A DNA stretch of 63,783 nucleotides, counting the filler. It is 6 parts of 6 records of this genome, joined end to end, with 100 filler letters (N's around TTAATTAATTAA, not from the genome) between each part and the next. Parts side by side here need not be neighbours in the genome. Positions count along the whole stretch, not along the records: positions 33,202 to 42,510 come from SRR31156797_17851; 5 more parts are not named here. One strand, written 5' to 3'. Under the pieces are notes generated by a model that made no database searches, was not told where the DNA came from, and was given only the letters and a program-made list of their open reading frames with translations. Made by a program: the position numbers and the translations under genes. This document shows positions 7,441-63,783 of this stretch, in pieces (position 1 is the stretch's first letter; each line of letters opens with the position of its first letter).

Positions 7441-7537
7441 AATTGAACCACTTTCAGACCTCGTGCGTCTGAACGGATTTGCAAATGAAATGAATGAATG
7501 CGGCATGCCGGTAGCGTTCACTCATTTGATGATGGCC

Positions 7538-8659: not shown

Positions 8660-9560
8660 TTTCCGCGGAGATGTTGTACAGCTCCGTCAGCATGTCGAAA
8701 TCATATCCATAGTACTTGAAGTTGCGGCGGGCTACGTTGAACCAGCTCTGATCCGAGGCGGCCGCTCCCCTGTCGATCTTCATCCCCTGCTTCAGCTGGC
8801 TGCAGCGGGAGGCGAATATGGCGGCCATCCGCGAGGTAGCATCAAGCTTGGGATTGTCCTGGAAGGGCAGGTTGCTGTTCACTCCGGCCCTGATGATCTC
8901 GTCGGGAAGCCCGGGAACCAGCTTGCCCAGCTGTCTGGTAATCTTCTCGGCGTATCCTGGCGTAAAGCTCTGTCCGGGGGTGTTCTGCCCCGACGTGAAC
9001 ATAACCGTCAGAGGCCTGATGAACATGGTGGTTTTCAGAAGGTGATAGATCTCCTCCTGGGGCATGCGCAGCCTCTGGACCTTTGTCAGCTCGAAGTTCA
9101 GGTACTTCTGCCGCTCGTAGCCCATCATCACGTAGCGCTTCAGATAACCGCTGCGCATGGCCGTCAGGGTTCCGGCGAAGCTGCGCCGTCCGGCGGGAAC
9201 CTGGAGCAGCTTCTGCACCACCTCGTAGAGCTGCTTCTTGGCGCTGTCCGGCGGAACGGGAAGCTTCATAAACGAGATATAGGCGTAGTTGGTCCTGTCG
9301 AAGATTTCGGCCTCGATCTGCGGAAGAATCTCCTTGTTTGTGATATCATAGAGAGTGCCGGTCATGATTTTGTAAATATCCGGCCACTGCCAACCGTTAA
9401 AATAAGCAGGAGATGAAAGCGTCGGCTTTAGCTTTTCGGCGTTGATATCAAAGAACTGCAATAGCTGATCTTCTTTCTGCAGCGCCGTGAAGCCTCCCAA
9501 ACTGGGGTTTTGCATGAGCCTGCCGAGGAACTGTAACGCTTTTGCTTTATCGTTATCCAT
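8649..9560 (-). CDS. Hypothetical cytoplasmic protein (start could extend to 9611)
   Basis: Long ORF with typical codon usage that overlaps or abuts the downstream gene; no recognisable motif. Confidence 0.7.
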   Translation of the reverse strand: MDNDKAKALQFLGRLMQNPSLGGFTALQKEDQLLQFFDINAEKLKPTLSSPAYFNGWQWPDIYKIMTGTLYDITNKEILPQIEAEIFDRTNYAYISFMKLPVPPDSAKKQLYEVVQKLLQVPAGRRSFAGTLTAMRSGYLKRYVMMGYERQKYLNFELTKVQRLRMPQEEIYHLLKTTMFIRPLTVMFTSGQNTPGQSFTPGYAEKITRQLGKLVPGLPDEIIRAGVNSNLPFQDNPKLDATSRMAAIFASRCSQLKQGMKIDRGAAASDQSWFNVARRNFKYYGYDFDMLTELYNISAENGW

Positions 9561-9649
9561 AAGTTTGCCAGTCCAAAAGGGTTTTGGTTTATCATCGGCG
9601 GAATGGGGCATTTTCTTGATGCGGCCCGGAAGTAAATAAAACTGTAATA

Positions 9650-12600
9650 ATGAAAAACCATATTTTCAGACTGATTATACTATCCCTGATCCTTCTCTTT
9701 CCCTATGGGGCGTCCGCCCGGGAGACTGATCCCGGCGAAGAGACCGAGGACAGCCCCTATCTGTTTCCCGAAAGATCCGGGGATGAAGAGGATGCGGGGG
9801 AGGCTGAAGAGAAGAAAAGCTATCCCCGGGAGCTCCTGGATGAGGATGAGGAGGCTCCCCGGTATATATTCGACATGGAGCTGGGGGATGTGAATGCGGA
9901 TGTGTTCTGGGAGGGCTACTGGCGTTACCGCTTCACCTACGGCACCGGCTTTGAGAACGGAAAAGACGGATTCAAATTCCCCGAGGCCTATCCCGGCCTG
10001 CGCGACGGGTTCGAGTTCGCCCAGGAACCGGACTTCTTCCTCTCCGTGCTTCTGCTGGACCACTACTTTGTGGAGTTCTCCTTTGCCGAGGGATATGACA
10101 AGAACACCTACGCCATGGGCTACGTGGGGGACGAGACCACGACGGTCAAAGAGATCCGGATCGGCAATTCGAAGATAGGAATCGGCGAGTACGAGGGGAT
10201 CGACGTCTCCAGTCCCGAGTACAACACCCCCGGGGCAATGGCCAGATTCGAGACCGCCCGGAGCCAGCACGAGGTGATGGTCCGCTACGATCCCACCGAG
10301 GAGCAGTCCAAAACCTTTATCGGCGAGTACGAGATAGACGAGGAGATCCTGGAGCTGCCCGACTACCAGCAGGGGCGGGCCTTCATCCTTCCCAATAGAA
10401 ATATCGGAAACCTGGAGATCTATGTCCAGGACCCTTCGGGAGAGCACAGCGGCAGCGACGGAAGGCGGTACACCGCAAGCGACATCCCCTACTCCGCCGA
10501 TCTGGCCGGCGGCTTCGTCACCCTGGTGAACGATCCGGGCGGCCGGGTTCTGATCTACTACACGTCCGGAGGCAGTCCCGTAGGGGATGCCGTGGTCTCC
10601 GAATTCATTATGGACAGCGACGGCCGGGGACGGCCCGATCCGGCGGAGGATCTGCTGCCCTTCTCGTGGACCGAGGAGAATCCCTATTCGGAGAAGCCCT
10701 CCGGAGGGTACTACAGCTTTGCCGAAAGCGCCCGGGTCACAGTAAACGGCCGGAACGCCCTTCTGGTTCACAATCCCGGAGAGTTTAGCAACTTCCAGAT
10801 GTACAACCGCTACGCCTTTAACCAGAGCCTCCCCTCCGAAAGCTGGCGGACCATCATCTCCCTGGTGGATTCGGGCAAGCTGACGGACGAGGACATGGAC
10901 TACAGCTTCGACACGGGCAGCGACGAGTCGGGAAACAGCAACCTCCTGACCGTGGAGATCGAAAACAGCGACAGCCGCTCCCCCTACAACAGGATCCCCT
11001 TTGCCGCCGAGAATCCCGAGGTCTACGGTCCCGGCCACGAGACCGAGGGCGACAAGGTATCCCGGGAGATCCTGTTGGCTACCAAGTCGGAAAGCGACAA
11101 CTACTTCCTGGGTACCAATATCATCAAGGGCTCGGTCAATGTCTATGTCAACGGCGTGGAAGACAAGACCGTGGACGTGGACTACGACACGGGAAAGCTC
11201 TACTTCTCACGCTATATCTTCTCGGACGACAGGATCGTGGTAACCTACCGGACCGAAAGCTCCGGCCTGACGGGGGGCGATCTGTTCATAGCCCAGGGAA
11301 ACCGCCTTTTCCTGAGCGAGGCATCCACCCTGGAGCTGGCCGAATCCCTGCGCTGGACCCTGCCGGAGAACGAGATGACAGAGGAACCGGGAGAGAGCCC
11401 CGGCGAGATGAACATGGCGGCCACCTGGTTTTACGACACAGAGAATCTGGATGCCATGGTCCACGGAGGGATGACCATCAGCACCTCCGACACGGCCGGG
11501 AACCTGAGGATCCAGGGCATGGAGGACAGCGGTTACACCTTCTCGGTCAGCCTGGACAGCGTTTTCCCTGCTGAAAACGACCTCAGCCCTTCCCCGACCA
11601 CGGCCAGCTATGACAGCTCGGACCGGGAGGATCTCTTGTACAAGGATTACGAGAGAACCGACAGTTCGGGCCAGACCTATCTGAACAATTACAGCTGGAG
11701 CGGGGCCGACGTGAAGAGCGGCAAAGAGGGTCCCTCCGTTGCCGCTGCGAGGGAAAATGACGATTTCAACTCCCGTGTCATGGTGATGAGCTACGACCTG
11801 AACGACGGGGAGTGGTCAGGCGGGGACTTCACGCCCATAGAAGACGAAGAGATCGACCTGTCGGGCTATTCGGAGCTGAGCTTCTACCTCCGCCGTCAGA
11901 ACCTGGGAGACGACAATCTTAAGCTGAGCGTCATCATAGGCGATAACGGAGAGTCTGAGGATTACGATGACGACGACGAGACCGAGCTAGGGGACGAGCG
12001 CTTCGTCTACGAAGAGAATATTACCTTGGACCTTCCATCGGCGGAGGATGTCTGGCAGAAGGTCACCCTGGACCTGAACGATTCGGACTGGGACAGGCTG
12101 ACCAGGGTCCGGTCCATCCGTTTTATTCTGAGCTCAAGCGGCGGCAACTCCTACGGCGACCTGCTGGCCGCCGGTTTCGAGGTGGAGGGCTCTCCCCTTC
12201 TGCTGACCGTGACAGACGCGAGCGGAAGGGAAAAGGACGCCGACGGCGTCACTTTGGTGGAGAAGAGCGACAGCTCCCTCAGCGACAGCTTCTCCGAGGT
12301 GGAATCGATCTTCCATCCCGACGGCGAGGATCAGAAGATACTGCATATGGAGTGGTCCGGTTCCGGAATCGAGGCGTCCGATACGATCAGGGGAGAGAGC
12401 TGGTTCAACAGCGTGCCCACGGGAGATTACGGCGAGTTTTCCCTCTATATCCGCAACCGCCAGACCGAAGGAAGCGGAACGATAGAGCTGACCGACAGCG
12501 AGGGCAAGGGCGTGGTCCTCACATACGCGCCCGGCTCCACGACCTGGGAGAAGCTGACGGTGGACCTGCAGAACGGCAGCGCCGATTTCTCCGGGGGCTC

Positions 12601-13989
12601 GGATGTGACGTCCCTCTCCATCGATAAGGATACGGAGAAGTTCACCCGATTCAACGTCAGCCGCACAGGCCTGGCCAGCGGCATCATGGAGCTGGACGAG
12701 ATCCACTTCTCCGAGCCCCTGTTCACCGCCGGCTCCTCCCTGGAGACCAGTTTGGAATACAAGATCCCCGGGGTGATCAGGACCATGGGCAACGGCTTCC
12801 CCGTCCTGGCGGACTTCGACGTCTCAACCAAGCTGAACTACTACACCTGGACCTCGGACAGCTACTTCGACCAGGAGTCCCGCCGGGTGGAAAGCCAGCT
12901 TTCCAGCGGCACGGATCTGATGAACGTGAGGCTGGAAGGGGACTTTGAACTGATATGGACAGACAGCGCCACAAGCTATGCGGGGGGACATCTGATCCGG
13001 ATACCCTCCCAGTCCCGCTGGGGATGGCTGCAGGACGAATACACGCGGTCCTTCGATCCCGGGAAGGATACGATGAGCCGTACGGACACACTCCACCTGA
13101 CCCCTTTCCGCATGCTGACCCTGGAAGCGGACACAAGCGCGACCACTACGGAAGAGACGATCACCCAGGGCTGGGGGGGATGGCTCTCCCTCAATCCCGA
13201 AGAACTGACGGCCATCCGTTACTCCATGGATCTCTACCAGACCTCGGAGTGGAGTTCCGATTCCAGCGACTATGCGGGCGACTGGAGCCGGGACTTCAAA
13301 TACATCAAACGTCTGGAGGATCAGGATGACGTGGAGACCCGGGAGGGCCTCTCCTCCTTCACCCTGTCCCGCCGTCCCGATCCCGTGGGCGTGGATCTGG
13401 AGCTGAAGCTGGAATACGACGCCAGCCAGGAAAGCGACTGGGAGCAGGAGAACAAGTGGGTATCGGATCTGTCTTTTCCCATCCAGATAGCCTCTCTCTC
13501 CAGCCCCTGGACCATCACTCCCGGCTACCGGAGAGATCTGAACCAGACGGTCTATCCCGAGCGCTATGACGAGGGATTCTCCGATGATCTGGATACCCTC
13601 TTCACCACCCTGGAGAGCCAGTTTCCCCTGACCCACTACGCCCCCTTCTACGAGATCTTCGGGCATAAGAACCTGGATGACTTCCTGGATACCATGACAG
13701 AGGCGGAGAAGGCCGAGTACAAGCCCCGGGTTTATCTGAATATAAACAGGCAGACCGGTTCCCATATCAGGGACCTCTTCGTCCCCTCGGGAGTGGACGT
13801 TTCGATCCAGAGGGAATATTACGCCAGTGCAGATTCCAGCTATATCCAGCACGATTGGAACTTCCAACTGGTTCAGACCGCCGTCAACCTCTTCGGAGCC
13901 TGGGGCCGGTATCCCAGCTTCGATTTCTATGCCACCGACGAGATATCCAGTTCCTTCCAGCTCGTCCTGGGGGGATACGATCTGTGGAC
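9650..13989 (+). CDS. Very large secreted/outer-membrane protein, 3'-truncated by the contig end; SprA-like motifs
   Basis: Signal peptide, >1440 aa acidic and beta-rich; IKGSVNVYVNG...VDYDTGKLYF; DLSGYSELSFY...WQKVTLDL. Confidence 0.7.
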
Positions 13990-14089
13990 NNNNNNNNNNN
14001 NNNNNNNNNNNNNNNNNNNNNNNNNNNNNNNNNTTAATTAATTAANNNNNNNNNNNNNNNNNNNNNNNNNNNNNNNNNNNNNNNNNNNN
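13990..14089. other. Artificial contig spacer
   Basis: N44-TTAATTAATTAA-N44 (stops in all six frames). Confidence 0.99.
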
Positions 14090-33101: not shown

Positions 33102-33201
33102 NNNNNNNNNNNNNNNNNNNNNNNNNNNNNNNNNNNNNNNNNNNNTTAATTAATTAANNNNNNNNNNNNNNNNNNNNNNNNNNNNNNNNNNNNNNNNNNN
33201 N
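33102..33201. other. Artificial contig spacer
   Basis: N44-TTAATTAATTAA-N44. Confidence 0.99.
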
Positions 33202-33738
33202 GACCACCTTGAGCTGGATCTGCTGGGGGCCCCTGAGGTTGATCAGGTTGAAGTACCGGATTCCGAAACTTTCCACCACGGTCAGGACCCGCTCGAGGAC
33301 CACCTGGCTATTCACTTCCCCCTTGAGAATGATGGATTTGGAATCAATGATCTGCTTTGCGGGCATGATCTCGATGCTCACCCCCGGGGCAATGGCCTTG
33401 ATCCGGGAAGCCATGAGATCGAGTATGGAAGGATCGATCCTTGAAAATACGGAAATGTCGTAGGTACGGACCTTGTCCTCAGCTTCCCAGAGAATAAGGG
33501 TGGTGCTGGCGTTTCGTTTTGACCTGGCCACCAGAAGCAGCTGGGTGGGGGAAAGAACATTGACATCCGCCACCTTGGGATCGGCAATGGAAGCACGGAT
33601 GATGGGTACCTCAGGCTCCATGAGGTGGGAATGGAACATCTCGATCCGGATCCGCTCTGACGGTTTGTCGGCCATGGCCGAAGCGGCAAGGCTGAGTACA
33701 ATGGCCATGGCAATTAAACATATACGGTTCTTCAACAT
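33202..33738 (-). CDS. cpaC: Tad secretin RcpA/CpaC, N-terminal part (truncated)
   Basis: Signal peptide; RASIADPKVADVNVLSPTQLLLVA..TTLILW pilus-secretin N-domain; PQQIQLKV. Confidence 0.82.
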
Positions 33739-33770
33739 TAATCTCCTTGAACAATCATGGGGCATGGGTC

Positions 33771-34883
33771 TCAGTCTTCATAGAATTTTACGGGATATTT
33801 TTTAGTGCCCTTGAGGATTTCAACCATACGGAAGGGTCTTTTTTCCTTGATCACGAGATCGGTGAAAAGCTCCCCACGGCTGTTGATACGCTGCCGGTCC
33901 CCGGGGTTTCTGGCAATCACCCTGAATTTTCCGGATTTGGAAGCATCCGTGACCACGGTGAGCTGTTCCGCCTGTTTGGGGGTGACAACAAGGGTGAGGT
34001 ACTTGGATTTTCCGGCATTGCCAAGGGCGCCCTCGAGGCTGTCCTCGGTTGCCAGCACCTCCAGATCCTGGAGAAGAATCCGGGAGGATTTCCGGTGACC
34101 GTTCATGACCCCCTTGGTTCCCACGGCACTGTTGCCCCCTTCGGTGGCAAAGAGGGACTCCATGCACGAAAAGATAAGATCCACCCGGTCCCCGGGCTCC
34201 AGGGTGCCGCAAATACCGTCGCTGTTATCGATCTCAAGGGAGATGGCTCGCATGCCGGGCTTGATCCGGCGGGCAGGATTGAAATGACCGTCCCGGATGG
34301 TGACAAGGCCGCTCTGATTGGTATAGATGATGGGCCGCGCCCCCAGGACCTCGGTGTCATCGCTGTTTCTCAATAGCAGCCGAAGCTTTGCCGCCTCACC
34401 GATGGAGGCAAGGACGGATCCCTGATCCGGGGTGACCAGCAGGTGAATGGCCCATGTTTTTTTCTTCTTGCTCACCTTGTCCGTGAGACGCTTTTTAAAG
34501 GTGTTTTCCTCAAGATCAAAAATCTCTATGTTCTGGAGCACCATGCGGGAGATGGTTCCCTTCTCCCCCCCCTGAAAGGCAGTGATGGCAACCACATCCA
34601 CCCGGTCATTTTTCCGGAGTTCCCGGGTGACCCCGGATATCTCGTCAACCCGGATGGTGACAATCCGCATGCCCTTTGGAATATCAGTGGAAAAATTTGG
34701 TGGGGCGGGTTCCTTTTTTTCAACCTCTTTCTTCTCAGGTTCCGGGGCAGGCGGCACTTCTGCGGCAACAACCGGAGCAGGCGGAGGCGCAGGGTCCTTT
34801 TTGAGCATGGAGACCCCCTTAACTGCCAGGAGCCCCATTAACACAGAGAACAGAATTGCAATTACGGTTTTAGCTTTAAACAT
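33771..34883 (-). CDS. cpaB: Flp pilus assembly protein CpaB/RcpC with two tandem RcpC domains
   Basis: IPKGMRIVTI..DRVDV..LQNIEI..LLVTPDQ and IKPGMRAISL..GDRVDL..LQDLEVLA..LVVTPKQ. Confidence 0.85.
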   Translation of the reverse strand: MFKAKTVIAILFSVLMGLLAVKGVSMLKKDPAPPPAPVVAAEVPPAPEPEKKEVEKKEPAPPNFSTDIPKGMRIVTIRVDEISGVTRELRKNDRVDVVAITAFQGGEKGTISRMVLQNIEIFDLEENTFKKRLTDKVSKKKKTWAIHLLVTPDQGSVLASIGEAAKLRLLLRNSDDTEVLGARPIIYTNQSGLVTIRDGHFNPARRIKPGMRAISLEIDNSDGICGTLEPGDRVDLIFSCMESLFATEGGNSAVGTKGVMNGHRKSSRILLQDLEVLATEDSLEGALGNAGKSKYLTLVVTPKQAEQLTVVTDASKSGKFRVIARNPGDRQRINSRGELFTDLVIKEKRPFRMVEILKGTKKYPVKFYED

Positions 34884-34931
34884 GGGTGATACTCTCTCCA
34901 TAAATGTAAATACGGGGATCTTCAGGCATGG

Positions 34932-35390
34932 TCAGGGGAATGCCACAAGGGAAACGACGCTGATTTTTCGGGGAATCATCTTTTCGGACAGGTAACCGGT
35001 CAGGGGGACGTATTCGTAGTCGACCATCTTTACTTCCAGGTACTGGTAGGCTTCATCCTCATCAGGAGTTTTGTTGTCGGCATCCTTGAAGCTGGCCGTG
35101 ATATTTGACGGATTCAAGGCCTCATCAAGCCAGAAGGCATGCCGGACGGCATTTTTAGCAATCACCCTGGGATCCCGGTATTGGTCGTCATCCGAATCGA
35201 GCCAGTACTTCACCTTGACGCCGGCCCTTGCACCGGATGCCACGGCATTCTCCGCCACCATGACATTGGTGAGATACCAGGCATAATCAAGCATCCCAAA
35301 GAAAAGCAAAAACCATACGGGGACAAGCAGGGCAAATTCCACGGCTGTCGCCCCCCGGTTATTGAGGAGATGGGATTTTAAGGATTTCAT
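34932..35390 (-). CDS. tadE: TadE-family pseudopilin
   Basis: RGATAVEFAL followed by a TM helix and GARAG. Confidence 0.88.
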   Translation of the reverse strand: MKSLKSHLLNNRGATAVEFALLVPVWFLLFFGMLDYAWYLTNVMVAENAVASGARAGVKVKYWLDSDDDQYRDPRVIAKNAVRHAFWLDEALNPSNITASFKDADNKTPDEDEAYQYLEVKMVDYEYVPLTGYLSEKMIPRKISVVSLVAFP

Positions 35391-35902
35391 ACAACGCCTC
35401 CCACAAAAACGTAGGCAATATATCCGGTAAAAATCGGCAGGGAATAGGGAATGGACTCCCGCTCCTTTTTCCGGTCCGCCGAACCGGGTGCCAGACGAAA
35501 CGCCAGCAACTTCACATCTTCAACAACACCTGCCAGTGAAGCCATTTTACGTTTTCTCAACAACAGAAACAGAGAAACAATCCCCCCGGCAATGGCACCA
35601 TATAAAAACGTCCAGAAAACAGCATAGCCCCCAACAAGGGTGCCGATTGTCCCTAAAAGCTTTACATCTCCCCCTCCGGCCCCGCCCAGAAGAAACGGGG
35701 CCATAAAAACCAGTAATCCTGCAACCAGCCCCTTAAAGGCAAAGACCGCCCCCGGCCCGGGTCCGAATTGAACTGCATTCAGCCAGAACCCTAGAAAAAC
35801 AAATGGCATGGTCAGCCAATTGGGAATCCTTCGCCACAGAAGATCGGTATAGACAGCCACACACACAAGCACCATGGCCGCAGACAAAGGGGAAAGAATC
35901 AA
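35387..35902 (-). CDS. cpaA: A24 prepilin peptidase CpaA/TadV
   Basis: TDLLWRRIPNW, GGGDVKLL, IPYSLPI. Confidence 0.9.
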   Translation of the reverse strand: MILSPLSAAMVLVCVAVYTDLLWRRIPNWLTMPFVFLGFWLNAVQFGPGPGAVFAFKGLVAGLLVFMAPFLLGGAGGGDVKLLGTIGTLVGGYAVFWTFLYGAIAGGIVSLFLLLRKRKMASLAGVVEDVKLLAFRLAPGSADRKKERESIPYSLPIFTGYIAYVFVGGVV

Positions 35903-36114
35903 TCGCCGATGCCACCGTTATCACTGCTTCCCTTTATTATTTCCGTAGTGTCGTTGAGTTTCTCTGAAATAGCTTCAAAAAGCCCGCTCAGCTTATCACT
36001 AAACCCGCCTAAGACAGTAACTAAAAGTGCCGCCATGATGCCTGCAATCAAACCATACTCAATGGCGGTGGCACCAGATTCATCTTCCCACAGTTTTTTT
36101 ACCAATCGTTTCAT
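35899..36114 (-). CDS. flp: Flp type IVb/c pilin
   Basis: DESGATAIEYGLIA Flp motif. Confidence 0.93.
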   Translation of the reverse strand: MKRLVKKLWEDESGATAIEYGLIAGIMAALLVTVLGGFSDKLSGLFEAISEKLNDTTEIIKGSSDNGGIGD

Positions 36115-36303
36115 CGCTTCACCTAACTTTGAGTTGTACCAGGGAATTTTTGGGACCGTTACCGGCCCCAAATACTTTCTAAATTACCTTTATGTCGGAT
36201 ATTAATACCCGATTACCCGGTTTAAAGCTTGGATTTTATTGCTTAAAAACCGGACATTTTTGCGTTTTTTCCCAAATAAGTACTTCTTTTGCTCCATGGG
36301 GCG

Positions 36304-37203
36304 CTATCGTAGAACAAGACTGTTGCGCCGGACCGGCGCACGAGGGGCCAGCTTTGCCTGAAACCGGTTGATCCACAGATCCGGAACCACATCCAGACCA
36401 ACGGTCACAGGCCGTTTTTTACGAACAAGGGTTTTCCGGTACTGGGAGGGACTTGTGCCCTCCAGTTTCTTGAACACCCGGGCAAAATAGGAGACATCGT
36501 TGAATCCCACGGCATAACAGATCTGGGAAACGTTCATATCCTGGTTGGTCATCATCCGCTTGGCCGCCTTGATCCGTGTACGGTTGAGATACTCCTTGAA
36601 CGAGCAGCCCACGGTATGCTTGAAGAGACGGGAGTAGTGATACCGGCTCAATCCGTTGATGGCAGCCACCTCATCCAGGGTGATGGCGCCCATGTATTTG
36701 GTTTCGATATACTCCAGGGACCGCTGGAGTTTTTTACTACCCTTTGACACGATGGGGTCCCCGCCGGCCGTGGGAGTGGAACGGGTCTGGAAATACAAGC
36801 TGCCGAGCCGGCTCAGGGCCGCGTTTTCAAAAAAGACGCCGATCTCGGGATAATCATTGAGCATCTCGACGAAATCGACCTTGTCCATGGTGTAGCAGGT
36901 GGTGGTCCGGGTGGCCACAAGGTCAACGATGGAGACCCCCTCTTCCACAAGGGCCATGAGACCGTAATACTCGCCCACGGTTAACGACCCGTTGGAACAG
37001 ATGGCGCCTTCCTTGGAACAGCGCTCAATCGCCAGATTACCGGAAACCACATAGCCGATATGGGTGATCACCTGGTTTTCCTGCAAAATCAGGGTATCTT
37101 TGGAAAAAGTACGCAACTGAAACAGGGATTCGATCTTCTCCCGTGTTGCGGGTTCAAGGGTGCTGAAGGGGGGAATATACTGCAGCAGTTCACTAGTTTT
37201 CAT
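36304..37203 (-). CDS. Transcriptional regulator: cNMP-binding-like domain fused to an AraC HTH
   Basis: IPPFSTL..F.KD..I..E...GYVVSG..L.VGEYYG; C-terminal LSRYHYSRLFK, VGFNDVSYFARVFKK; AGGAG RBS before the ATG at 37203. Confidence 0.88.
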   Translation of the reverse strand: MKTSELLQYIPPFSTLEPATREKIESLFQLRTFSKDTLILQENQVITHIGYVVSGNLAIERCSKEGAICSNGSLTVGEYYGLMALVEEGVSIVDLVATRTTTCYTMDKVDFVEMLNDYPEIGVFFENAALSRLGSLYFQTRSTPTAGGDPIVSKGSKKLQRSLEYIETKYMGAITLDEVAAINGLSRYHYSRLFKHTVGCSFKEYLNRTRIKAAKRMMTNQDMNVSQICYAVGFNDVSYFARVFKKLEGTSPSQYRKTLVRKKRPVTVGLDVVPDLWINRFQAKLAPRAPVRRNSLVLR

Positions 37204-37215
37204 TCTCAAGCTCCT

Positions 37216-37252
37216 AAAAACAAAAATCCCGGCAAGAATATTGCCGGGATTT
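37216..37252 (-). terminator. Intrinsic terminator in the riboswitch expression platform
   Basis: Minus strand AAATCCCGGCAA-TATTC-TTGCCGGGATTT followed by TTGTTTTT, ending at the RBS of the regulator. Confidence 0.82.
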
Positions 37253-37310
37253 ACGTTTTTAAATCCACTTAAGGTCTCGACGTCCTTTGTCCGTAAGGAT
37301 AGTCAATTCA

Positions 37311-37465
37311 TGCAGGTCGGTCTTCTGACTTACGGATCAACTTACTTATCGCGCCTTCCCGTTTTCAAAAAAACAGTGACATAAATGCGACGTTCATCCC
37401 CGTTCACAGCGGCGGGCCCGTCATCGAATCTCACGATGTTCCCATGCTCAAAATGAGCACCTGCA
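37311..37465 (-). ncRNA. Cobalamin (B12) riboswitch
   Basis: Minus strand: TGCAGGT(P1)-GCTCA/TGAGC-ATGGGAA-CATCG-TGAGATT-CGATG-ACGGGCCCGCCGCTGTGA...GTCACTG...GGGAAGGC...AAGTCAGAAGACCG-ACCTGCA; all conserved boxes present and in order. Confidence 0.92.
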
Positions 37466-37883
37466 CTCTATAATTTTTTATGAAACCATCGATCGGGTTG
37501 AGTAGATAAAAATCAACCGAAAACGATATGGGGTGGTTCTAAAAACAATGGCAAGAAAAGTCAAGGACAAAATCGACATTGTAAATTGAATGCAGACCAG
37601 CAAAATAACCACTGTACGCAAGACAAAAACAATGTTATACTTACTCGGATAAAAAAACAGGGATCATTCACGATTTCCCTTGAATTTTCCCACAGAACCG
37701 TTATCAATGAAAGGCTGAGCAGTAGATCATGCCCATTGGGCGATATTGCCGGAAACAGGAATAAAAAGCGCAAACAAATCCTATCATACGGCAATTAATT
37801 AATAGCAAAGAGATGAAATCTGTCGTATAAAAAGGCATTTTGGAGTGTTTACCCCCATGAAAGACAGAGAAAGAAGGATTGAT

Positions 37884-38327
37884 ATGACACTGTCCGCAAA
37901 AGATGAAAAAGGATTCACCCTGATCGAACTGATGGTTGTCGTGGTGATTCTGGGAGTCCTGGCCGGCCTCATCGTGCCGAGACTCATGGGAAGAACCGAC
38001 GAGGCAAAACAGGTCAAGGCCCAGGTTGATATTGCCGCCATCGAGACCGCGTTGAAACTCTATCGCCTGGACAACGGCTTCTACCCGCCCACGGAGCAGG
38101 GACTCATGGCCCTTGTGGAGAAACCCGCCTCCGACCCCCTGCCGGTCAAATGGCACGAAGGCGGCTACCTTGAAAAGGGCAAGATCCCCAAGGATCCCTG
38201 GAACAGGGAGTATCTCTACCTCTGCCCCGGCATCCACGGAGACTTTGACATCATCTCCTACGGCGGCGACGGAGCCCCCGGCGGCGAGGGAAAAAACAGG
38301 GACATAAAGAGCTGGGAACTTGAGTAA
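37884..38327 (+). CDS. gspG: T2SS major pseudopilin
   Basis: GFTLIELMVV, ALKLYRLDNG.YP.TEQGL.AL, PKDPW, SYGGDG. Confidence 0.95.
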   Translation: MTLSAKDEKGFTLIELMVVVVILGVLAGLIVPRLMGRTDEAKQVKAQVDIAAIETALKLYRLDNGFYPPTEQGLMALVEKPASDPLPVKWHEGGYLEKGKIPKDPWNREYLYLCPGIHGDFDIISYGGDGAPGGEGKNRDIKSWELE

Positions 38328-38835
38328 AAAGCGTTCGGGAGAAACCGGTTTTACCATCATAGAGCTTGTTATAGTTCTAGTCATAGCAGGTATTCTCCTG
38401 TTTTTCGCCCTGCCGACGTTCCAGGACGTACGCTTTTTTTCCGACCCGGAAAACGCCCTTGGTAAAACGATTCAACTGATCGACTCGCTGAAGAGAAAGG
38501 CCATGACCGACAACAGGGACTATGTAATGCATGTGGACATTGCCGCAGGCATCATATGGGTTTCGGACGAGGCCATGGATCAGGAGACGATGAAAGCCGC
38601 CCGGGAAAAAGGCATTCGATTCTCGGGCGACACCCTGCTCCTTGACGTGGAATTTCCAGGCACCATGCCCCTTGCCTCGGACGACATCCGGATACGGTTC
38701 CGCAGGCAGGGGTATTCGGACATGGCATTGATCCATCTCCAGGAGGAGGAGAACGATGTCACCCTGAAAATCGAACCCTTTCTTTCAAGGGTTGAACTTG
38801 AGAACAGGAGTGTTTCCTTTGACCAGTGCATGTAA
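38320..38835 (+). CDS. gspH: T2SS minor pseudopilin H
   Basis: GFTIIEL N-methyl motif; position after gspG. Confidence 0.75.
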   Translation: MSKKRSGETGFTIIELVIVLVIAGILLFFALPTFQDVRFFSDPENALGKTIQLIDSLKRKAMTDNRDYVMHVDIAAGIIWVSDEAMDQETMKAAREKGIRFSGDTLLLDVEFPGTMPLASDDIRIRFRRQGYSDMALIHLQEEENDVTLKIEPFLSRVELENRSVSFDQCM

Positions 38836-39232
38836 ACCATGGGACATAAGAACGGTTGAAGGCTTTACCCTTCTTGAGATAATGGTGAGCCTCTCCATTG
38901 TCGCCATTGTCTTTGTCTCCCTGTTCAAGATGCAGTCCTCGAGCATCATGCTTGCCGGATACGGCAAATTTCATTCAACCGCCCCCTTTCTCGCGCGGCA
39001 GACCCTCACCCGGATCGAAGGGGATCTTGACGATGATGACGCCCCCTCGGGTGATTTTGGGGACAGTTTTCCAGGATACCAATGGCAGGCGCGGATCTCC
39101 GATTACCAGACCTATGATTCCGCGATCATCCCGGAATCGGCCGCCAAACGGCTCAAGCGGGTGGAGATCGAAATCCTGCAGGGAGAAAACCGGTTCACCC
39201 TGAATACCTGGAGATATCTTGGTAATGAATAG
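38819..39232 (+). CDS. gspI: T2SS minor pseudopilin I (TTG start inferred from AGGAG at 38806)
   Basis: GFTLLEIMVSL; G.F...FPGYQW. Confidence 0.78.
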   Translation: MTSACKPWDIRTVEGFTLLEIMVSLSIVAIVFVSLFKMQSSSIMLAGYGKFHSTAPFLARQTLTRIEGDLDDDDAPSGDFGDSFPGYQWQARISDYQTYDSAIIPESAAKRLKRVEIEILQGENRFTLNTWRYLGNE

Positions 39233-39890
39233 GGGGTTCACGCTGATAGAGATCCTAATCGCCGTCCTGATCTTCGGGGTGTTGATGACCACCCTGTTCA
39301 CCTCGTTCCAGTCTTTCATCACCTCTTCAACGGTGGTGGGGGACGGGCTTGCCCAGGACGAACGGATCAGAACCCTCCTGGGCCACCTGGAAAGGGACCT
39401 TGGCGCCCTGTACATCACCCGCCCCCCCCGGTACAAAAAACCGGAAACCACTTCCGACCCGGATCCGTTCAGGTTCCAGGGCACCCAGGAGAGCATTGGC
39501 GGCACCCTGGTTTCAAAGCTTGGGTTTGCCTCCCTCAACCACCTGGCCTTGGGTGGCAGGGATATCCCCGGCGTGGCAAGGATCGTCTACCGTGCAAGGG
39601 CCAACAGCGACAACGGGATGGATCTTTGCCGGTCCGACGTATTGAGACCCTTTGAGGAGCCACCGGAGCGCGCCTGCGATCCCGTCCTGGTCCGCAACAT
39701 ATCGGATTTTCAGCTGACCTATGTGGACAGCGAGGGGGACGAACACACCTCCTGGGACTCGGAATCGAACACCTTCAAGTACACCCTGCCCGTTTCCGTA
39801 AAATTCAAGATCACCCTCGACACCGGCGATACCCCCCGGATCATCGAGACCCGGATCCCGCTCCCCGTATCAAGGGAGGCCCAGGATTGA
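39225..39890 (+). CDS. gspJ: T2SS minor pseudopilin J
   Basis: GFTLIEILIA, LERDL, LPVSV. Confidence 0.8.
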   Translation: MNRGFTLIEILIAVLIFGVLMTTLFTSFQSFITSSTVVGDGLAQDERIRTLLGHLERDLGALYITRPPRYKKPETTSDPDPFRFQGTQESIGGTLVSKLGFASLNHLALGGRDIPGVARIVYRARANSDNGMDLCRSDVLRPFEEPPERACDPVLVRNISDFQLTYVDSEGDEHTSWDSESNTFKYTLPVSVKFKITLDTGDTPRIIETRIPLPVSREAQD

Positions 39891-40999
39891 CACGGGTTGC
39901 CAACAATAAAGACGGCATGGCCCTCCTGATCTGCCTTGCCATCATCGCCGTGCTTGCCGCAGCCGGGCTTGAACTGGGAAAACGGGTGAGGAGCGCCACC
40001 GACCATGCCATTGTCCTCCAGGACAGCTTCCGGGCCGAGGAGATGGCCCTGGCAGGCATCAACCTGGCCATGCTCCTTTTAGAAGAGGATGCCAACGCCA
40101 ATGAAACCGATTCCATCCAGGAGTCCTGGGCCGACCCTGAAGAACTGGGAACGGCAATCGCCTCCCTGGGCTACGACACCGGTAACATGACCCTCACCAT
40201 TACGGATGAACTGGGAAAGATACAGGTCAACGCCCTGTTGAACGAATTTCCAGGTCACACCTTCAACCCGGATCAGCAGGAGTTCTGGGAACGCTTCCTG
40301 GACCTGCTCATCTCGGCGGACAAGTCCGAGGATACCCGGAATCCAGTGGAGATCATCAATTGCGTCAAGGACTGGATGGACTCCCTGGACGATGACGAGG
40401 AAACAGGTGCATCCGGTGAGGAATCCGCCTATTACCAGGATCTTGATCCGCCCTACACCTGCGCCAACGGCCCATTCGATCTCCTGGATGAGCTCTTTCT
40501 GGTCAAAGGCGTGTCAAAGGATCTGCTGGCCCATGAACCCATCGAGGGGTTCGATGAATTCGAGGGTGAAGCCCTGGATTTTTCAGAAGCCTTTACCGTT
40601 TTCGGCATGGATGATATTGTGTCTGAAAATGGGCGCTACCGTTTTCCGGGGACCATCAACATCAACACCGCCGATGTCATGATTCTGGCGGCCCTTCTGC
40701 CTTCGGGCATGGAAGACCAGGCCGAAGAACTGGCGGATTACAGGGTTGAAAAGCAGGAGGAGACGGGCGATTTTGTTAACACCCTTGACAAGGGGTGGTA
40801 CAAAACGGTAATCGACTTGTCAGGAAAAGAGGAAAAACGATTCGACCGCCTGATACGCTACTCAAGCCATATTTTCAAGGCTGGGTGCACGGCAACGGTG
40901 GGCAATACGGAAAAGACGATCATCGCCTACATTAACAGGAAAAAGGACAAAGAGACCAACAGATGGACCTGCGAAACCATCCGGTTGTTGAGGAATTAG
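39887..40999 (+). CDS. gspK: T2SS minor pseudopilin K
   Basis: GMALLI, ITDELGKIQVN, DWMD, ELFLVKGV, ININTA. Confidence 0.88.
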   Translation: MTRVANNKDGMALLICLAIIAVLAAAGLELGKRVRSATDHAIVLQDSFRAEEMALAGINLAMLLLEEDANANETDSIQESWADPEELGTAIASLGYDTGNMTLTITDELGKIQVNALLNEFPGHTFNPDQQEFWERFLDLLISADKSEDTRNPVEIINCVKDWMDSLDDDEETGASGEESAYYQDLDPPYTCANGPFDLLDELFLVKGVSKDLLAHEPIEGFDEFEGEALDFSEAFTVFGMDDIVSENGRYRFPGTININTADVMILAALLPSGMEDQAEELADYRVEKQEETGDFVNTLDKGWYKTVIDLSGKEEKRFDRLIRYSSHIFKAGCTATVGNTEKTIIAYINRKKDKETNRWTCETIRLLRN

Positions 41000-41008
41000 A
41001 GGCTTTTT

Positions 41009-42442
41009 ATGAACAGAACGATCCTTGGACTTGACATAGGCACCAACTCGCTGACAGCCGTTATCGTGGAAAAGCCGTTAAAGGGATTTTCCATAAAGGA
41101 AAGCGTGACCATCCCCTTTGAAGACCTCGAGGACCCGGAGAGTTCCAACGCTGAAGAGACGGATACCACCCCTTTTGAACGGGCCGTTTCCCTTCTTCCG
41201 GAAAAGATCGACTGCAAGGGCGTCTCCTCCGTGGCCGTGTCCATCCCCTCCTCCGCTGTCTCCTTCAGGAACATCGCCCTTCCCTTTCGATCCGCCAAAA
41301 AGATCCGGCAGGTCCTTGGGTTTGAGCTGGCCTCCCTCCTTCCCCTGGCAGACGAGACCTATGTATCGGATTTCACCCGGCCCAAACGAAACAGCGCAAA
41401 TGATTTCCCCCCGTTGTTGACGGCATCGGTTCCGGACGCGGCCCTCGGATCCTGGTTTTCCGCCCTGGAAACAGCAGGCCTGCGCCCCTCCCTCATCACG
41501 GTCCAGGGCTACATCGCCGCCGACCACCTGCTTGAGGCCGGCAACGGCGAGGCGCACACCCTGTGGATCGACCGGGCCGAAGATCACACCACCCTGTGCC
41601 TTGGGTCCGGGGGAACCATCGTCCAGGTCCGGTCCCTGGGAGCGAACCTTTCCGCGACCGCCCTGGCAAGAGCCATTCAGCAGACCGTTCAAGGCGAACA
41701 CCAGCGGTCCCAGGAGGGGTTCATGCCCCAGCGATGCGTCATCACCTCCCGGGAAGCGGAGGCTGAAGCCCTGTGCGGCCCCCTTGAAGAGGCCCTGGGT
41801 TATCCGGCAGACGTTGCCGACACAAGCCCGCACCCCATCAATGCGGTCTCGGCCGCCCTTGCCAATGCGACATCCAGGCCTGTCTTCAATTTCTGCCAGG
41901 GAGAGTACGCCGAGGATTCCATCCTGAAACGCTATACAGCCAACATCGTTGTGCTGCTCATTTTTGTTGTCATGGCATTTTCAGCCTTTCTGTTCAAGGT
42001 CCACGCCGACATCGGCTACATGGAGAACAATGCGTCCGAACTTGACAAGGCCACCGTCGCCGTGTTCAAAAAGAGCTTTCCACAGGTAAAAAGGATCGTG
42101 GATCCTTTGATGCAGATGAAGATAGAACTCAAACAGCTCAAGGAAACCTCGGGCCTTTCGGGGGAGACAAGCGCTCCCAAGGAAGGCCTCCACCACCGAT
42201 GCGTGGATATTTTAGCCGAGCTGTCAAAAAAAATACCGTCGTCCATCGACATTGAAACCAACCGGTTCATTCTGAACCCGGGCCGGATTCTCCTGTCCGG
42301 CTCAACGGCGAACTTCAACGATGTGGACAAGGTAAAGGGACTGCTTGAAGAATCGGCTCTTTTCAAGCAGGTGGAAATCCAGAGCGCCGCGGCAGATAAA
42401 ACAGGCAAACGGGTTCGATTTAAATTTGTCATAACCCTATAG
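41009..42442 (+). CDS. gspL: T2SS protein L (PilM/PilN-like)
   Basis: LGLDIG actin-like start, FRNIALPF, TM helix, periplasmic C-terminal domain. Confidence 0.82.
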   Translation: MNRTILGLDIGTNSLTAVIVEKPLKGFSIKESVTIPFEDLEDPESSNAEETDTTPFERAVSLLPEKIDCKGVSSVAVSIPSSAVSFRNIALPFRSAKKIRQVLGFELASLLPLADETYVSDFTRPKRNSANDFPPLLTASVPDAALGSWFSALETAGLRPSLITVQGYIAADHLLEAGNGEAHTLWIDRAEDHTTLCLGSGGTIVQVRSLGANLSATALARAIQQTVQGEHQRSQEGFMPQRCVITSREAEAEALCGPLEEALGYPADVADTSPHPINAVSAALANATSRPVFNFCQGEYAEDSILKRYTANIVVLLIFVVMAFSAFLFKVHADIGYMENNASELDKATVAVFKKSFPQVKRIVDPLMQMKIELKQLKETSGLSGETSAPKEGLHHRCVDILAELSKKIPSSIDIETNRFILNPGRILLSGSTANFNDVDKVKGLLEESALFKQVEIQSAAADKTGKRVRFKFVITL

Positions 42443-42454
42443 GATGGTTTGCAT

Positions 42455-42510
42455 ATGAACCTTTCACAACGAGACAAAAAGGCATTGATCATCTGCGCTG
42501 CATTTCTGAT
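42455..42510 (+). CDS. gspM: Probable GspM N-terminus (truncated)
   Basis: MNLSQRDKKALIICAAFL runs into the gap directly after gspL. Confidence 0.6.
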
Positions 42511-42610
42511 NNNNNNNNNNNNNNNNNNNNNNNNNNNNNNNNNNNNNNNNNNNNTTAATTAATTAANNNNNNNNNNNNNNNNNNNNNNNNNNNNNNNNNN
42601 NNNNNNNNNN
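42511..42610. other. Artificial contig spacer
   Basis: N44-TTAATTAATTAA-N44. Confidence 0.99.
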
Positions 42611-58004: not shown

Positions 58005-58132
58005 CAAAAAGAAACTAAAATTTATATATATATATTTGTTGCCACGTAAAGCTCAAAACATAGCTCGAGCTTATAGTCAATCATATTTTTACACAACTAA
58101 AAATCATCATTTTTGATAATAAGGGGGAAGCT

Positions 58133-58351
58133 ATGTCTAAAAACAGTTTAAAATTAATCACTCTCAATAAAGGGGAAGTATTTCGTACATCGAAAAAGGC
58201 CCTAACAATTAACTGTATAAAGGGTGTTCTCTGGATAACATTCAAGGGAAGTAAAGATATCATTTTGGAGCAGGGAAAAAATATGACTCTGAAAAATGAG
58301 AAGTTCATTTTGCTACAGGCACTGGAGAGTAGCAGTATTGAGTTATTATAA
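58133..58351 (+). CDS. Small DUF2917-like protein
   Basis: INCIKGVLWIT..G.KDIILEQG pattern; GGGG RBS. Confidence 0.65.
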   Translation: MSKNSLKLITLNKGEVFRTSKKALTINCIKGVLWITFKGSKDIILEQGKNMTLKNEKFILLQALESSSIELL

Positions 58352-58377
58352 CGCTCTCGATGAAAGAGGTGGTAAAG

Positions 58378-58860
58378 ATGTCAATAAAGATAAGAAATAT
58401 TAATCATAATCCGGAAATATGCCTCAATGTAATAAGAGAAGCATTTATGACAGTTGCAAAAGATTTCGCTCTCGATAAACAGAATGCGCCAAGTAACCCT
58501 GCATTTATAGAGCTGGAGCATCTTATTCAGATGAAGGAAAGAGGTGTAGCAATGTTTGGAGCTTTCATTGATGATAAGTGTTTTGGATTTGTAGGGATAG
58601 AAAATGCAGGAAATAACGCGTATTATCTGGAAAAGTTGGCTGTACTGCCAAAGTATAGAAAGCTAGGATATGGTAGGGAGATCATTGATTTCGTTTTCCG
58701 ATACGTCAGAGAGCATCAAGGGAATATAGTTTCGATCGGGATAATTGATGAGCATCATGTGTTGAAGAGTTGGTATTCTGATTATGGATTTATTGAAGTA
58801 GGGAAGAAAAAATTTGATCATTTGCCGTTTACTGTGTGTTTTATGGAGATGGAAGTATAA
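58378..58860 (+). CDS. GNAT-family acetyltransferase
   Basis: LAVLPKYRKLGYG acetyl-CoA motif; WYSDYGF. Confidence 0.88.
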   Translation: MSIKIRNINHNPEICLNVIREAFMTVAKDFALDKQNAPSNPAFIELEHLIQMKERGVAMFGAFIDDKCFGFVGIENAGNNAYYLEKLAVLPKYRKLGYGREIIDFVFRYVREHQGNIVSIGIIDEHHVLKSWYSDYGFIEVGKKKFDHLPFTVCFMEMEV

Positions 58861-58884
58861 TTAATTGAGAAATAATAATATTGG

Positions 58885-58939
58885 AAATGACCTCTTACAT
58901 GATAATTGTAATTATCTACGAAAGAGGTCATTTTGTTTT
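58885..58939 (+). terminator. Probable terminator after the GNAT gene
   Basis: AAATGACCTCTT ... AAGAGGTCATTT inverted repeat followed by TGTTTT. Confidence 0.55.
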
Positions 58940-59330
58940 CTGACATTTTCGCTGTTATAAGCTAATGTATAAAAAAAATAGTATTTTCTCTTTTTTCTAG
59001 TTTAGTGTTTTAATATTCATTTATCTTTAATCGCTTCACATTTTTTACAACTTTAAGTCTTTTTATACCTACTTTTGTTCTTTATATCGCTTTCAAAAAC
59101 ACCTTAAATCAACTAGCTCGTTTTAAAACTAACATTGATATCTATTTTTGCACATGCTATAATAGATAAGTTACATTAATCACATTAAGCGAAACAAAAC
59201 CTTTTTTTAGGGCATCGTATCCTTTTCACATATTTCGTTTATTAACTGGATTAACAATAAAACTAGTTTTAAAAAATTATGAATTTTGACACAGTTCAAT
59301 AAAAAGATAAGGATAAGGTAAAAAAATAAC

Positions 59331-59418
59331 GCGCAACTCAATTGCGTATTATTTCCTGCATAGGTATAAAAGGCGCAACTTTTTAGTTATTTATAGCGTC
59401 TATAAACGAGTTAGTGAA
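59331..59418 (+). mobile_element. Putative integron-type attI-like site / left cassette boundary
   Basis: GCGCAACT direct repeats (59331, 59373), then CGTCTATAAACGA-GTTAGTGAA; the GTT core at 59410 is complementary to TTCACTAAC at 62682. Confidence 0.5.
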
Positions 59419-59443
59419 CATCAAAAATATACAAGGAGAAAAT

Positions 59444-62679: not shown

Positions 62680-62683
62680 CATT

Positions 62684-62744
62684 CACTAACACACGGCAGA
62701 TTCCATGAAAACCGCACATCAGCTTTGTCGCAGGGGCGTTAACC
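62684..62744 (+). mobile_element. Putative (degenerate) attC site
   Basis: CACTAAC 5 nt after the stop codon, inner arms CGGCAGA/TTTGTCG, ending GTTAACC; 61 bp. Confidence 0.5.
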
Positions 62745-62856
62745 TAAACAAAACATAATGCACACTAATAAAAATAAAAGATTTAATCTGTGTTAATATA
62801 ATACAACCCCTCCCAAAACGCTCAAAACGTCTCAGGTGGGGTTCTCTCTATCTCCA

Positions 62857-63750: not shown

Positions 63751-63783
63751 AAGCTCATCCTCAATAATTAGTTTTTATTCATT

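Follow-up and report, generated by a model that had tools for sequence, protein, structure and literature searches.

Control of a transcription factor by a cobalamin (vitamin B12) riboswitch is known from Listeria, where the riboswitch acts through the antisense RNA AspocR on PocR (Mellin 2013, in the available part of PMC6794450). In Bacteroides, riboswitch-controlled btuB/btuG/btuH/btuJ loci for surface capture of the vitamin are induced by B12 limitation, as described in the accessible portion of bioRxiv 10.1101/2025.08.21.671476, and for a tandem cluster of adenosylcobalamin (AdoCbl), cyclic di-GMP (c-di-GMP)-I and cyclic AMP-GMP (c-AMP-GMP) riboswitches in Desulfobacca acetoxidans the authors speculated, in the text available, on a link between B12 and conductive pili (Sherlock 2022, PMC9481103). 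Here, we analyse a 63,783-nucleotide stretch of DNA (the window) in which a cobalamin riboswitch precedes the gene of an AraC-family regulator, which is followed by the genes of a Tad/Flp pilus and lies opposite a divergent operon for a type II secretion system (T2SS). No description of a cobalamin riboswitch together with Tad, Flp, AraC, PEP-CTERM or a T2SS was found in the searchable literature, a scope that leaves out most subscription journals, supplements and regulon databases. Our comparisons favour a two-tier B12-starvation regulon, in which a riboswitch-gated activator would turn on a programme of surface capture and attachment, and we place the probability of this reading at roughly 0.68.

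The window consists of contigs strung together by five spacers, each composed of N44, a six-frame-stop linker and N44, and the locus lies on the contig at 33202-42510. The spacer at 33102-33201 (no strand, not biological) cuts the locus at 33201, so the DNA that precedes 33102 need not be its neighbour in the genome. An independent assembly of a public sequencing run (X1), which may be where this DNA comes from, recovers 33202-42500 in one piece with 0 differences and likewise starts at 33202, which serves as a check of the assembly only. Statements on distal tad, btu and cbi genes rest on relatives and not on the window's own genome; fetched loci are labelled L, genomes G and public sequencing runs X, with L001 being the closest relative locus and G001 the closest genome.

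The aptamer, of class I type, was identified on the minus strand at 37298-37479 with the covariance model RF00174, which matches over its full length (positions 1-189) with 102.6 bits compared to a gathering threshold of 31.5 (E = 1.4e-24); the complete B12 riboswitch that the first-pass annotation had read from the letters at 37465-37311 corresponds essentially to the P1 span. All further leader elements lie on the same strand. A candidate sigma70 promoter of the riboswitch-regulator transcript occupies 37536-37564 (-35 at 37564-37559, 17-nt spacer, -10 at 37541-37536), with both hexamers identical in L001 and the flanks varying. Downstream of the aptamer core, a P13 hairpin (37277-37306) carries a loop that, read by eye, can form a kissing interaction with L5 (37419-37411) at 4/5 positions. 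It is followed by a short candidate antiterminator hairpin (37247-37266), which takes the 5' arm of the terminator and forms in the fold once the 3' arm is blocked; equivalent hairpins with changed pairs can be seen by eye in the leaders of relatives. The intrinsic terminator itself (37215-37252) comprises a 12-pair stem (37252-37224) and a U-rich tail, and an extended stem (37273-37205; fold z = -4.7, 0/200 shuffles) also pairs with the AGGAG ribosome-binding site, in agreement with the earlier description of a terminator ending at this site. In 32/37 distinct leaders, the regulator is preceded by a U run with a hairpin in front of it that reaches at least -15 kcal/mol in stability, a count made without a shuffled control. 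Going by the riboswitch class and this layout, B12 binding would lock the aptamer with P13 and let the terminator form before the regulator gene, also hiding its ribosome-binding site, and scarcity of B12 would permit read-through and synthesis of the regulator. As no minus-strand terminator was found in the region between regulator and flp (36115-36303), read-through may add direct riboswitch control of flp at co-oriented loci such as the window.

Two further features were observed among cobalamin leaders. In a subgroup (L008, L013, L024, L095, L096, L098, L101, L103, L105, L110, L173 and L174) a conserved loop sequence, closed by antiterminator pairs, lies between aptamer and terminator, where it may contribute a tertiary contact to the expression platform. 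At L011:1376-7227, a cobalamin aptamer directly precedes a methylmalonyl-CoA mutase operon, so that the genes behind it encode enzymes that depend on B12, an unusual position for an OFF switch.

The regulator gene (36304-37203, minus strand) encodes 299 amino acids and had been annotated as a fusion of a cyclic nucleotide monophosphate (cNMP)-binding and an AraC-type domain. Both domains score above their Pfam cut-offs (cNMP_binding PF00027, 41.6 vs 27.5 bits; HTH_18 with the C-terminal double helix-turn-helix (HTH), 89.3 vs 33.6 bits), and the protein is a predicted activator. Its cNMP-binding-like domain is degenerate: it shares the fold of canonical cAMP/cGMP sensors, but the phosphate-binding cassette is without its Glu and Arg, both of which are replaced relative to MloK1 and neither of which is conserved in the family alignment. 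Short HTH-only versions of the regulator (~110-200 residues) occur near cobalamin switches in L012, L099, L102, L104, L106, L117, L213, L214 and L215, several of them with the predicted operator described below (box), and those in L099, L104 and L214 adjoin the same boxes and switches. Taken together with the missing cassette residues, this makes a cyclic-nucleotide input to the regulator doubtful. The best NCBIfam match is PocR, which covers the HTH only and at 90.9 stays far below the equivalog cut-off of 500; antisense control of the PocR type does not apply here, the aptamer being in sense orientation 5' of the regulator gene. The regulator has a C-terminal extension of ~40 residues (36304-36420) in common with only its five closest homologues, and a plasmid search with it returned generic AraC matches only, none of which reached 80% coverage of the query.

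Collecting loci by the regulator alone leaves the sample unbiased for its neighbours. The 48 full-length regulators reduce to 42 at 93% identity, the window included, and carry labels that include Desulfobacteraceae, Desulfosarcinaceae, Desulfobulbaceae, Syntrophobacteraceae and Desulfatiglandales. A same-strand cobalamin aptamer lies directly upstream of the regulator in 34 of the 39 loci with enough flank, and Tad genes are present in the fetched DNA of 26/42 loci (19/26 for loci of at least 10 kb); the linkage of riboswitch, regulator and Tad genes, which the first-pass annotation had suggested looking for in other Desulfobacterota, is conserved. The Tad genes are co-oriented with the regulator, as in the window, in 4 of these 26 loci, divergent in 14 and at the far end of the operon in 8. 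A quick regulator tree covers 40 of the 42 rows (two dropped out because their names were duplicated) and has five long branches. In it, co-oriented loci fall into two distinct clades, and at least two clades each contain the divergent and the distal layout. As the riboswitch cannot act on flp in cis in the divergent layout, a trans-acting link is needed there.

For the reverse comparison, which starts from the Tad side, we searched the 301 genomes of the order sample, and a phylum sample of 401 genomes, for CpaB with two RcpC domains, which marks this Tad subfamily. In the 301 genomes, nine contain the full regulator, nine the double-RcpC CpaB and seven both (6/8 without the seed; the relatives are not independent). 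Eleven non-seed Tad loci of the subfamily were found, of which five have a box before flp (G093, G221 and G684, which are training loci, and the new cases G150 with 31 bits and G261 with 16.9 bits), four have a cobalamin aptamer directly before flp (G060, G281, G309 and G311) and two have neither. The four loci with the aptamer directly on flp have no box (0/3 scored, none above 12 bits). Within one Tad subfamily, indirect control by B12 thus takes turns with direct control, and no other observation points more strongly to selection for B12 control of the pilus. Among ordinary single-RcpC Tad loci, an aptamer was present in 0/10, and one has a 17-bit box match 2.3 kb from flp. A separate, widespread group of Tad loci (L116, L120, L129, L132, L134, L135, L137, L138, L140, L144, L150, L157 and L159) is divergent from a receiver-AraC regulator and has another gene set, with an extra 450-aa gene after cpaA; no cobalamin aptamer was found in the 14 loci of this kind scanned, and the group was excluded.

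The putative operator was first read as a repeated GCAA core with a 21-bp period upstream of flp across loci. Of 18 non-coding regions upstream of flp to hand, 17 were used for motif discovery (L103, a near-copy of L095, was dropped), and an unseeded Gibbs search produced the same 38-mer from 12/12 starts, with 30.9 bits compared to 15.1-15.7 bits in six dinucleotide-shuffled sets. Leave-one-out scoring gave 10.5-48.1 bits in 16/17 loci, the maximum in shuffled regions being 13.0 bits in 5100 trials. In the window, the 38-bp box lies at 36227-36264 on the minus strand, with two 17-bp half-sites (36264-36248 and 36243-36227) that each start with the GCAA core, and is followed 19 nt later by a predicted -10 element (36201-36207, minus strand) that lacks a consensus -35. 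A TA dinucleotide 19 nt after the box recurs in 15/17 loci and is shifted by a single base in the remaining two; agreement with the -35 consensus averages 1.8/6 bases. With a matrix built without the window and L001, the flp promoter (36264-36201) ranks first in the whole 63.8 kb at 44.7 bits. In a relative represented by one collinear contig of 29.8 kb (X4), the aligned pieces end at 36263 and resume at 37753, the outer edges of the flp box and of the second box described below. A degenerate c-di-GMP-I aptamer had been considered for 36115-36303 and was rejected, since an Rfam search at E up to 10 returned noise only and the operator explains the region.

At AraC class II activated promoters, direct repeats overlap the -35 element, and the geometry of box and -10 suggests that the flp promoter belongs to this type. 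The regulator is predicted to bind the 38-bp direct repeat, with the promoter-proximal half placed over the poor -35. That the regulator targets flp had previously been proposed from adjacency alone; the proposal now receives strong computational support from linkage kept through co-oriented, divergent and convergent layouts, from the conserved AraC-type operator and promoter upstream of flp and from the riboswitch placed directly on flp, without a box, in four genomes.

The second-best match in the window coincides with the promoter of the divergent T2SS operon, where a second predicted operator (37769-37806) and a -10 element (37826-37832) together span 37769-37832 on the plus strand. This gspG box scores 23.5 bits with the matrix lacking the window and L001 and 21.9 bits in a second scoring (0/3000 shuffles), and like the flp box it is conserved in L001. 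The operon (37884-42442, plus strand) comprises gspG (37884-38327), H, I, J, K and L, identified with the Pfam families T2SSG, N_methyl, T2SSK and GspL/PilN, before it is cut by the linker at 42511; in L001 it runs on with M, C, D and E-like genes. Given the geometry of the two sites, the regulator would activate both the flp-tad and the T2SS operon. The T2SS is linked to the system in three layouts, namely behind a box in divergent orientation (window and L001), behind a nearby box (L003, 15.3 bits) or 3 nt behind the regulator stop codon (L081). The boxed gspG is the only gspG found in G001, and G002 has a second copy elsewhere.

In order to assess the wider regulon in relatives, we used a matrix trained only on flp promoters, and its top matches in 2.4 Mb of loci turned out to be promoters of other operons of one theme. 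One group of boxed operons couples second cobalamin switches to genes for DUF4465 proteins, a paralogous VPLPA pair and TonB receptors (e.g., L002, L092, L099, L104, L106, L166, L212 and L214); the other consists of clusters encoding VPLPA-CTERM and dockerin-tagged proteins. Such surface-protein clusters abut tadG in G001, G002, G003 and G004; the remaining 5 kb of the G005 contig show none. Genome-wide searches with a strict pattern placed 4/4 matches of G003 (7.7 Mb) in one 17-kb island, 2/2 matches of G002 (5.3 Mb) in the island (reversed control 0) and 3/5 matches of G001 at island genes (control 0). The first-pass picture of a B12-controlled Tad pilus is supported but incomplete: the divergent T2SS belongs to the predicted regulon as well, and in relatives so do B12-binding surface proteins of the PEP-CTERM type.

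The DUF4465 proteins of the relatives belong to PF14717 and match PDB entries 9hmu, 9fct and 9qpm, with TPAYF kept in 13/15 rows, duplicates included; B12 binding across the DUF4465 family, with TPAYF named as the motif, is described in the portion of bioRxiv 10.1101/2025.08.21.671476 available to us. A dockerin-like C-terminus (PF00404) was detected at 29.5 bits in L004 and 28.1 bits in L274, and at 21.7 bits, below the cut-off, in L167. The model of a dockerin-tagged protein (predicted local distance difference test score (pLDDT) 68) forms a six-bladed propeller, compared to the seven blades of BtuG, with generic WD40 and NHL matches only, and for its VPLPA/PEP-CTERM neighbour the nearest models are cohesins, at TM scores of 0.66-0.69 that lie below the bar for naming. 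For the two paralogous VPLPA families, considered as possible BtuH homologues, profile searches of the PDB gave no match up to E = 1, and the Atlas had no named family for them. An exosortase was found in 4/5 genomes, near the island in two. In relatives, the regulator is thus predicted to activate VPLPA/PEP-CTERM operons encoding DUF4465/BtuJ proteins, cohesin-like anchors and dockerin-tagged propellers, along with some TonB receptors; T2SS and exosortase may display the B12-binding proteins at the surface.

Several observations accompany these relatives' loci. Motifs of c-di-GMP-I type occur at boxed promoters (L002:3538-3615, L092:4284-4394, L100:1432-1510 and L101:1443-1533; also L007, L010 and L107), mostly in tandem behind the second cobalamin switch and ahead of DUF4465/VPLPA genes; in four loci they score as the GGC variant, and this genetic context may help to assign its ligand. 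A regulatory loop from the regulator to c-di-GMP was considered but finds no support, as a 27-bit box before a GGDEF gene (L230:7597-8700, G001:C31) was not found at the G002 orthologue. The G002 island extends over ~77 kb (G002:C1 ~3,502,800-3,580,000; L170, L003, L168, L298 and L299) and contains four cobalamin switches, a TonB receptor, CbiK, a split T2SS, the regulator, Tad genes, VPLPA proteins, exopolysaccharide (EPS) genes, an exosortase and btu- and chelatase-like genes. Next to tadG in L166:3335-5027, L167:5662-6678 and 8996-9601 and L273:16961-18850 are genes for a DUF1573/OS_HP2-like Ig-domain protein and a family-less secreted protein of 200-220 residues, the latter often behind its own box.

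Turning to the pilus itself, the five co-oriented genes that had been annotated past the regulator, flp-cpaA-tadE-cpaB-cpaC, begin after an intergenic region of 189 bp and encode the Flp pilin, A24 peptidase, TadE, RcpC/CpaB and the N-terminal part of the secretin of a Tad system, all above Pfam cut-offs. On the minus strand these are flp (35899-36114; Flp/Fap major pilin of 71 residues, PF04964, 58.6 bits), the prepilin peptidase gene cpaA/tadV (35387-35902; A24, PF01478, 58.4 bits), a gene for a tadE-like pseudopilin (34932-35390; PF07811, 45.3 bits), cpaB/rcpC (33771-34901; two RcpC domains, PF16976 in two stretches, TIGR03177 137 bits vs a cut-off of 71) and the first 188 codons of the secretin gene cpaC/rcpA (33202-33765; PF13629), which is cut by the contig end and whose product is 84% identical to the full secretin of L001. 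Genes for CpaE, the CpaF ATPase, TadB, TadC, TPR/TadD and TadG would fall past the contig end in the window; G001 has them on two unjoined contigs (L001 and L167), and in both G002 and G003 they lie on a single piece. A model of G001 TadG (pLDDT 69) comprises a pilin and a beta-solenoid, the nearest structures being DUF3494 ice-binding beta-solenoids (Z 12.7); it also matches the Thermus competence pilin ComZ (Z 10.6, rmsd 5.0 over 274 residues), and no B12-binding fold or B12 pocket was identified in it. The modelled fold of TadG is adhesin-like, and a Tad pilus with such a tip may serve to fix the cell at sites of high corrinoid concentration, be these particles, flocs or neighbouring cells.

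The match to ComZ also raises the alternative that Tad is itself part of corrinoid uptake, as a retractile fibre whose TadG tip or docked proteins carry B12 to the outer membrane or secretin, or that Tad exports the dockerin/PEP-CTERM cargo. The riboswitch directly on flp in four genomes, a placement usual for transporters, the surface-protein cluster abutting tadG in 4/5 genomes first read at the distal end and the specialised subfamily marked by double-RcpC CpaB are all in line with this alternative. However, the best matches of the TadG model are the adhesin-like beta-solenoids, the TonB receptors and btuFCD of G001 lie under separate switches, so that no alternative gate is needed, and the T2SS co-regulated in the clade of the window could perform the export; we consider a direct role of Tad in uptake or export rather unlikely. 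A bolder version, in which the subfamily with double-RcpC CpaB and ComZ-like TadG would be a vitamin-harvesting appendage that, together with a dedicated T2SS and a cellulosome-like PEP-CTERM array of cohesins, dockerin-propellers and BtuJ, collects corrinoids from particles or cells for the outer-membrane receptor, all under one riboswitch-gated activator, is put forward here as a tentative proposal.

Tad-like machines kill by contact in predatory bacteria, and a Kil-like, contact-dependent device lysing B12-rich neighbours would fit the logic of starvation. The operons examined nevertheless show standard Tad parts and surface proteins, with no toxin- or FHA-type gene among the neighbours scanned (part of the open reading frames; no Kil reference was searched), and none of the findings points to predation. 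This use of the pilus is highly improbable.

Against the regulon of surface capture and attachment favoured here weigh a number of observations, several of which concern the assignment of box and switch. Five of the 39 regulators lack an upstream aptamer, and the equilibrium fold energy of the terminator form (-34.1 kcal/mol) far outweighs that of the alternative (-13.5 kcal/mol), leaving the switching path a putative one. L013, from the cultured species Desulfosarcina cetonica, fails leave-one-out scoring (-12.8 bits, with a spacing of 20 bp), and control AraC-type loci (mostly Firmicutes, 1.13 Mb) contain 6 matches above 15 bits and 1 above 20 bits. The strict pattern found nothing relevant in G004 (one unrelated match, control 1) and no match in G221, and its reversed control gave 3 in G003. 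G053 combines the regulator with a Tad locus of the subfamily and has neither box nor switch before flp; G151 has a Tad locus without box or switch in a genome without the regulator. The related loci are not independent. Other points concern content: the T2SS link is limited by lineage, with gspG outside the island in G003, G150 and G221, DUF4465 was not found in G002, G151 and G221, no B12-binding gene is present on the window's contig (33202-42510), and cbiD occurs in 5/5 related genomes tested. The Tad locus of G151 (L254:11027-17227) was seen to be decaying, with a split cpaB, an IS1 transposase and nothing after cpaC.

Similarity among AraC-type sites, occasional matches beside unrelated AraC genes and the unboxed locus of G053 would be expected if the riboswitch controlled the regulator only, the box being read by another AraC protein or the neighbourhood being inherited without function. 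Yet box, regulator and aptamer stay associated across three layouts in several families, the box is absent where the riboswitch sits on flp, and G151 lacks regulator and box alike, which leaves this explanation very unlikely. Considered jointly, a leader that is off with B12 and a regulator that activates the flp-tad, T2SS and surface-protein operons are highly probable.

The presence of cbiD indicates that the relatives are probably not auxotrophs, and dependence on corrinoid producers is not implied. In G001, TonB receptors, btuFCD and cbiK each have separate switches, the stretches fetched around them containing no box that exceeds 13 bits, and import itself would proceed via ordinary BtuB/BtuFCD systems under riboswitches of their own. 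Because of these genes and of cbiD, the regulon resembles an accessory layer on the outside of the cell that supplements normal B12 synthesis and uptake. The same finding of cbiD would suit B12 acting as a proxy signal, for example for cobalt scarcity in sulfidic sediment, in a floc or biofilm switch in which pilus, EPS and PEP-CTERM coat serve aggregation and the B12 binders are passengers. Compatible with a proxy are the CbiK chelatases on the flanks of several loci, the genes for EPS export, glycosyltransferase and exosortase next to the G002 island, the lack of an assigned ligand for most VPLPA proteins and the c-di-GMP-I-type motifs that follow the second switches. On the other hand, apart from flp the box is most frequent before operons for DUF4465 proteins and TonB receptors, which often carry a second cobalamin switch, and no box above 12 bits is present in 20 kb of the G002 EPS block, so that we regard the proxy as unlikely. 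The functional part of the starvation regulon, a capture coat at the cell surface with the pilus serving attachment, is favoured by a small margin over its negation, and attachment to, or scavenging from, corrinoid producers, as the first-pass annotation had it, is plausible as its purpose.

Elsewhere in the window, a low-GC block (24-33%) at 58005-63783 encodes a fused N6-methylase/HsdS-like protein, a 375-residue protein without assignment and a HEPN protein and looks like a foreign restriction or defence islet. At 7463-14041, three open reading frames without Pfam match (357, 279 and 1463 residues, the last cut by a linker) lie downstream of an HD-domain gene. Contigs from RNA libraries of relatives (X2 and X3), which cover parts of gsp, the aptamer and tadE/cpaA, were set aside and not used as evidence, since as contigs only they do not allow strand, level or termination to be read.

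Taken together, the analysis suggests that sulfate-reducing bacteria possess a surface programme of pilus, secretion machine and B12-grabbing proteins that is switched on by B12 shortage. If so, sulfate reducers of sediments would couple piliation as well as protein secretion to their B12 status, and a Tad subfamily and many PEP-CTERM proteins without assigned function would gain an environmental cue and a probable job. The 38-bp predicted operator could then serve as a search key for new B12-binding surface families, with the genes behind the box as candidates.

How far the predicted regulon departs from described systems differs from case to case. The Desulfobacca cluster comes from the same phylum and, in the text available, likewise has terminator-bearing AdoCbl switches in tandem with c-di-GMP-I-type aptamers, as found behind the regulator in L002, L007, L010 and L092; there, conductive pili were proposed and no Tad genes, regulator or operator are named. 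With the Bacteroides capture loci, as far as the accessible portion describes them, the regulon of the relatives shares DUF4465 proteins with TPAYF and TonB receptors, but it carries VPLPA/PEP-CTERM tails and dockerin-like and cohesin-like modules in place of lipoprotein signals, has an extra transcription-factor tier and includes the Tad pilus and T2SS. The dockerin-like C-terminus beside a PEP-CTERM protein with cohesins as nearest models recalls the cohesin-dockerin pairs of cellulosomes, whereas the system of the relatives is Gram-negative and B12-regulated, has a six-bladed propeller as cargo and is paired by prediction only.

ToxT of the toxin-coregulated pilus (TCP) and PerA of the bundle-forming pilus (BFP) are AraC-family activators encoded in type IV pilus loci. 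The window resembles them in having a predicted AraC-type activator encoded at the pilus locus and, in front of the pilin gene, a predicted direct-repeat site placed over the -35, and differs in that theirs are type IVb pili under virulence cascades, none of which, to our knowledge, is riboswitch-gated or vitamin-responsive. In Listeria, a B12 riboswitch likewise governs a transcription factor that drives an operon; according to the part of that work available, it acts via an antisense RNA, the factor is switched on by B12 and enzymes that use B12 are its targets, in contrast to the sense 5' attenuator of the window, which is predicted to be off with B12 and to act on a pilus, secretion machinery and proteins of the cell surface. 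If the reading holds, a riboswitch is amplified here through a transcription factor into a multi-operon structural programme, for which Listeria PocR, as so described, represents the opposite logic with metabolic targets. Judged by its recurrence across genomes, the link between B12 riboswitch, regulator and pilus is real and conserved, has no counterpart in the literature searched and is built from known parts.

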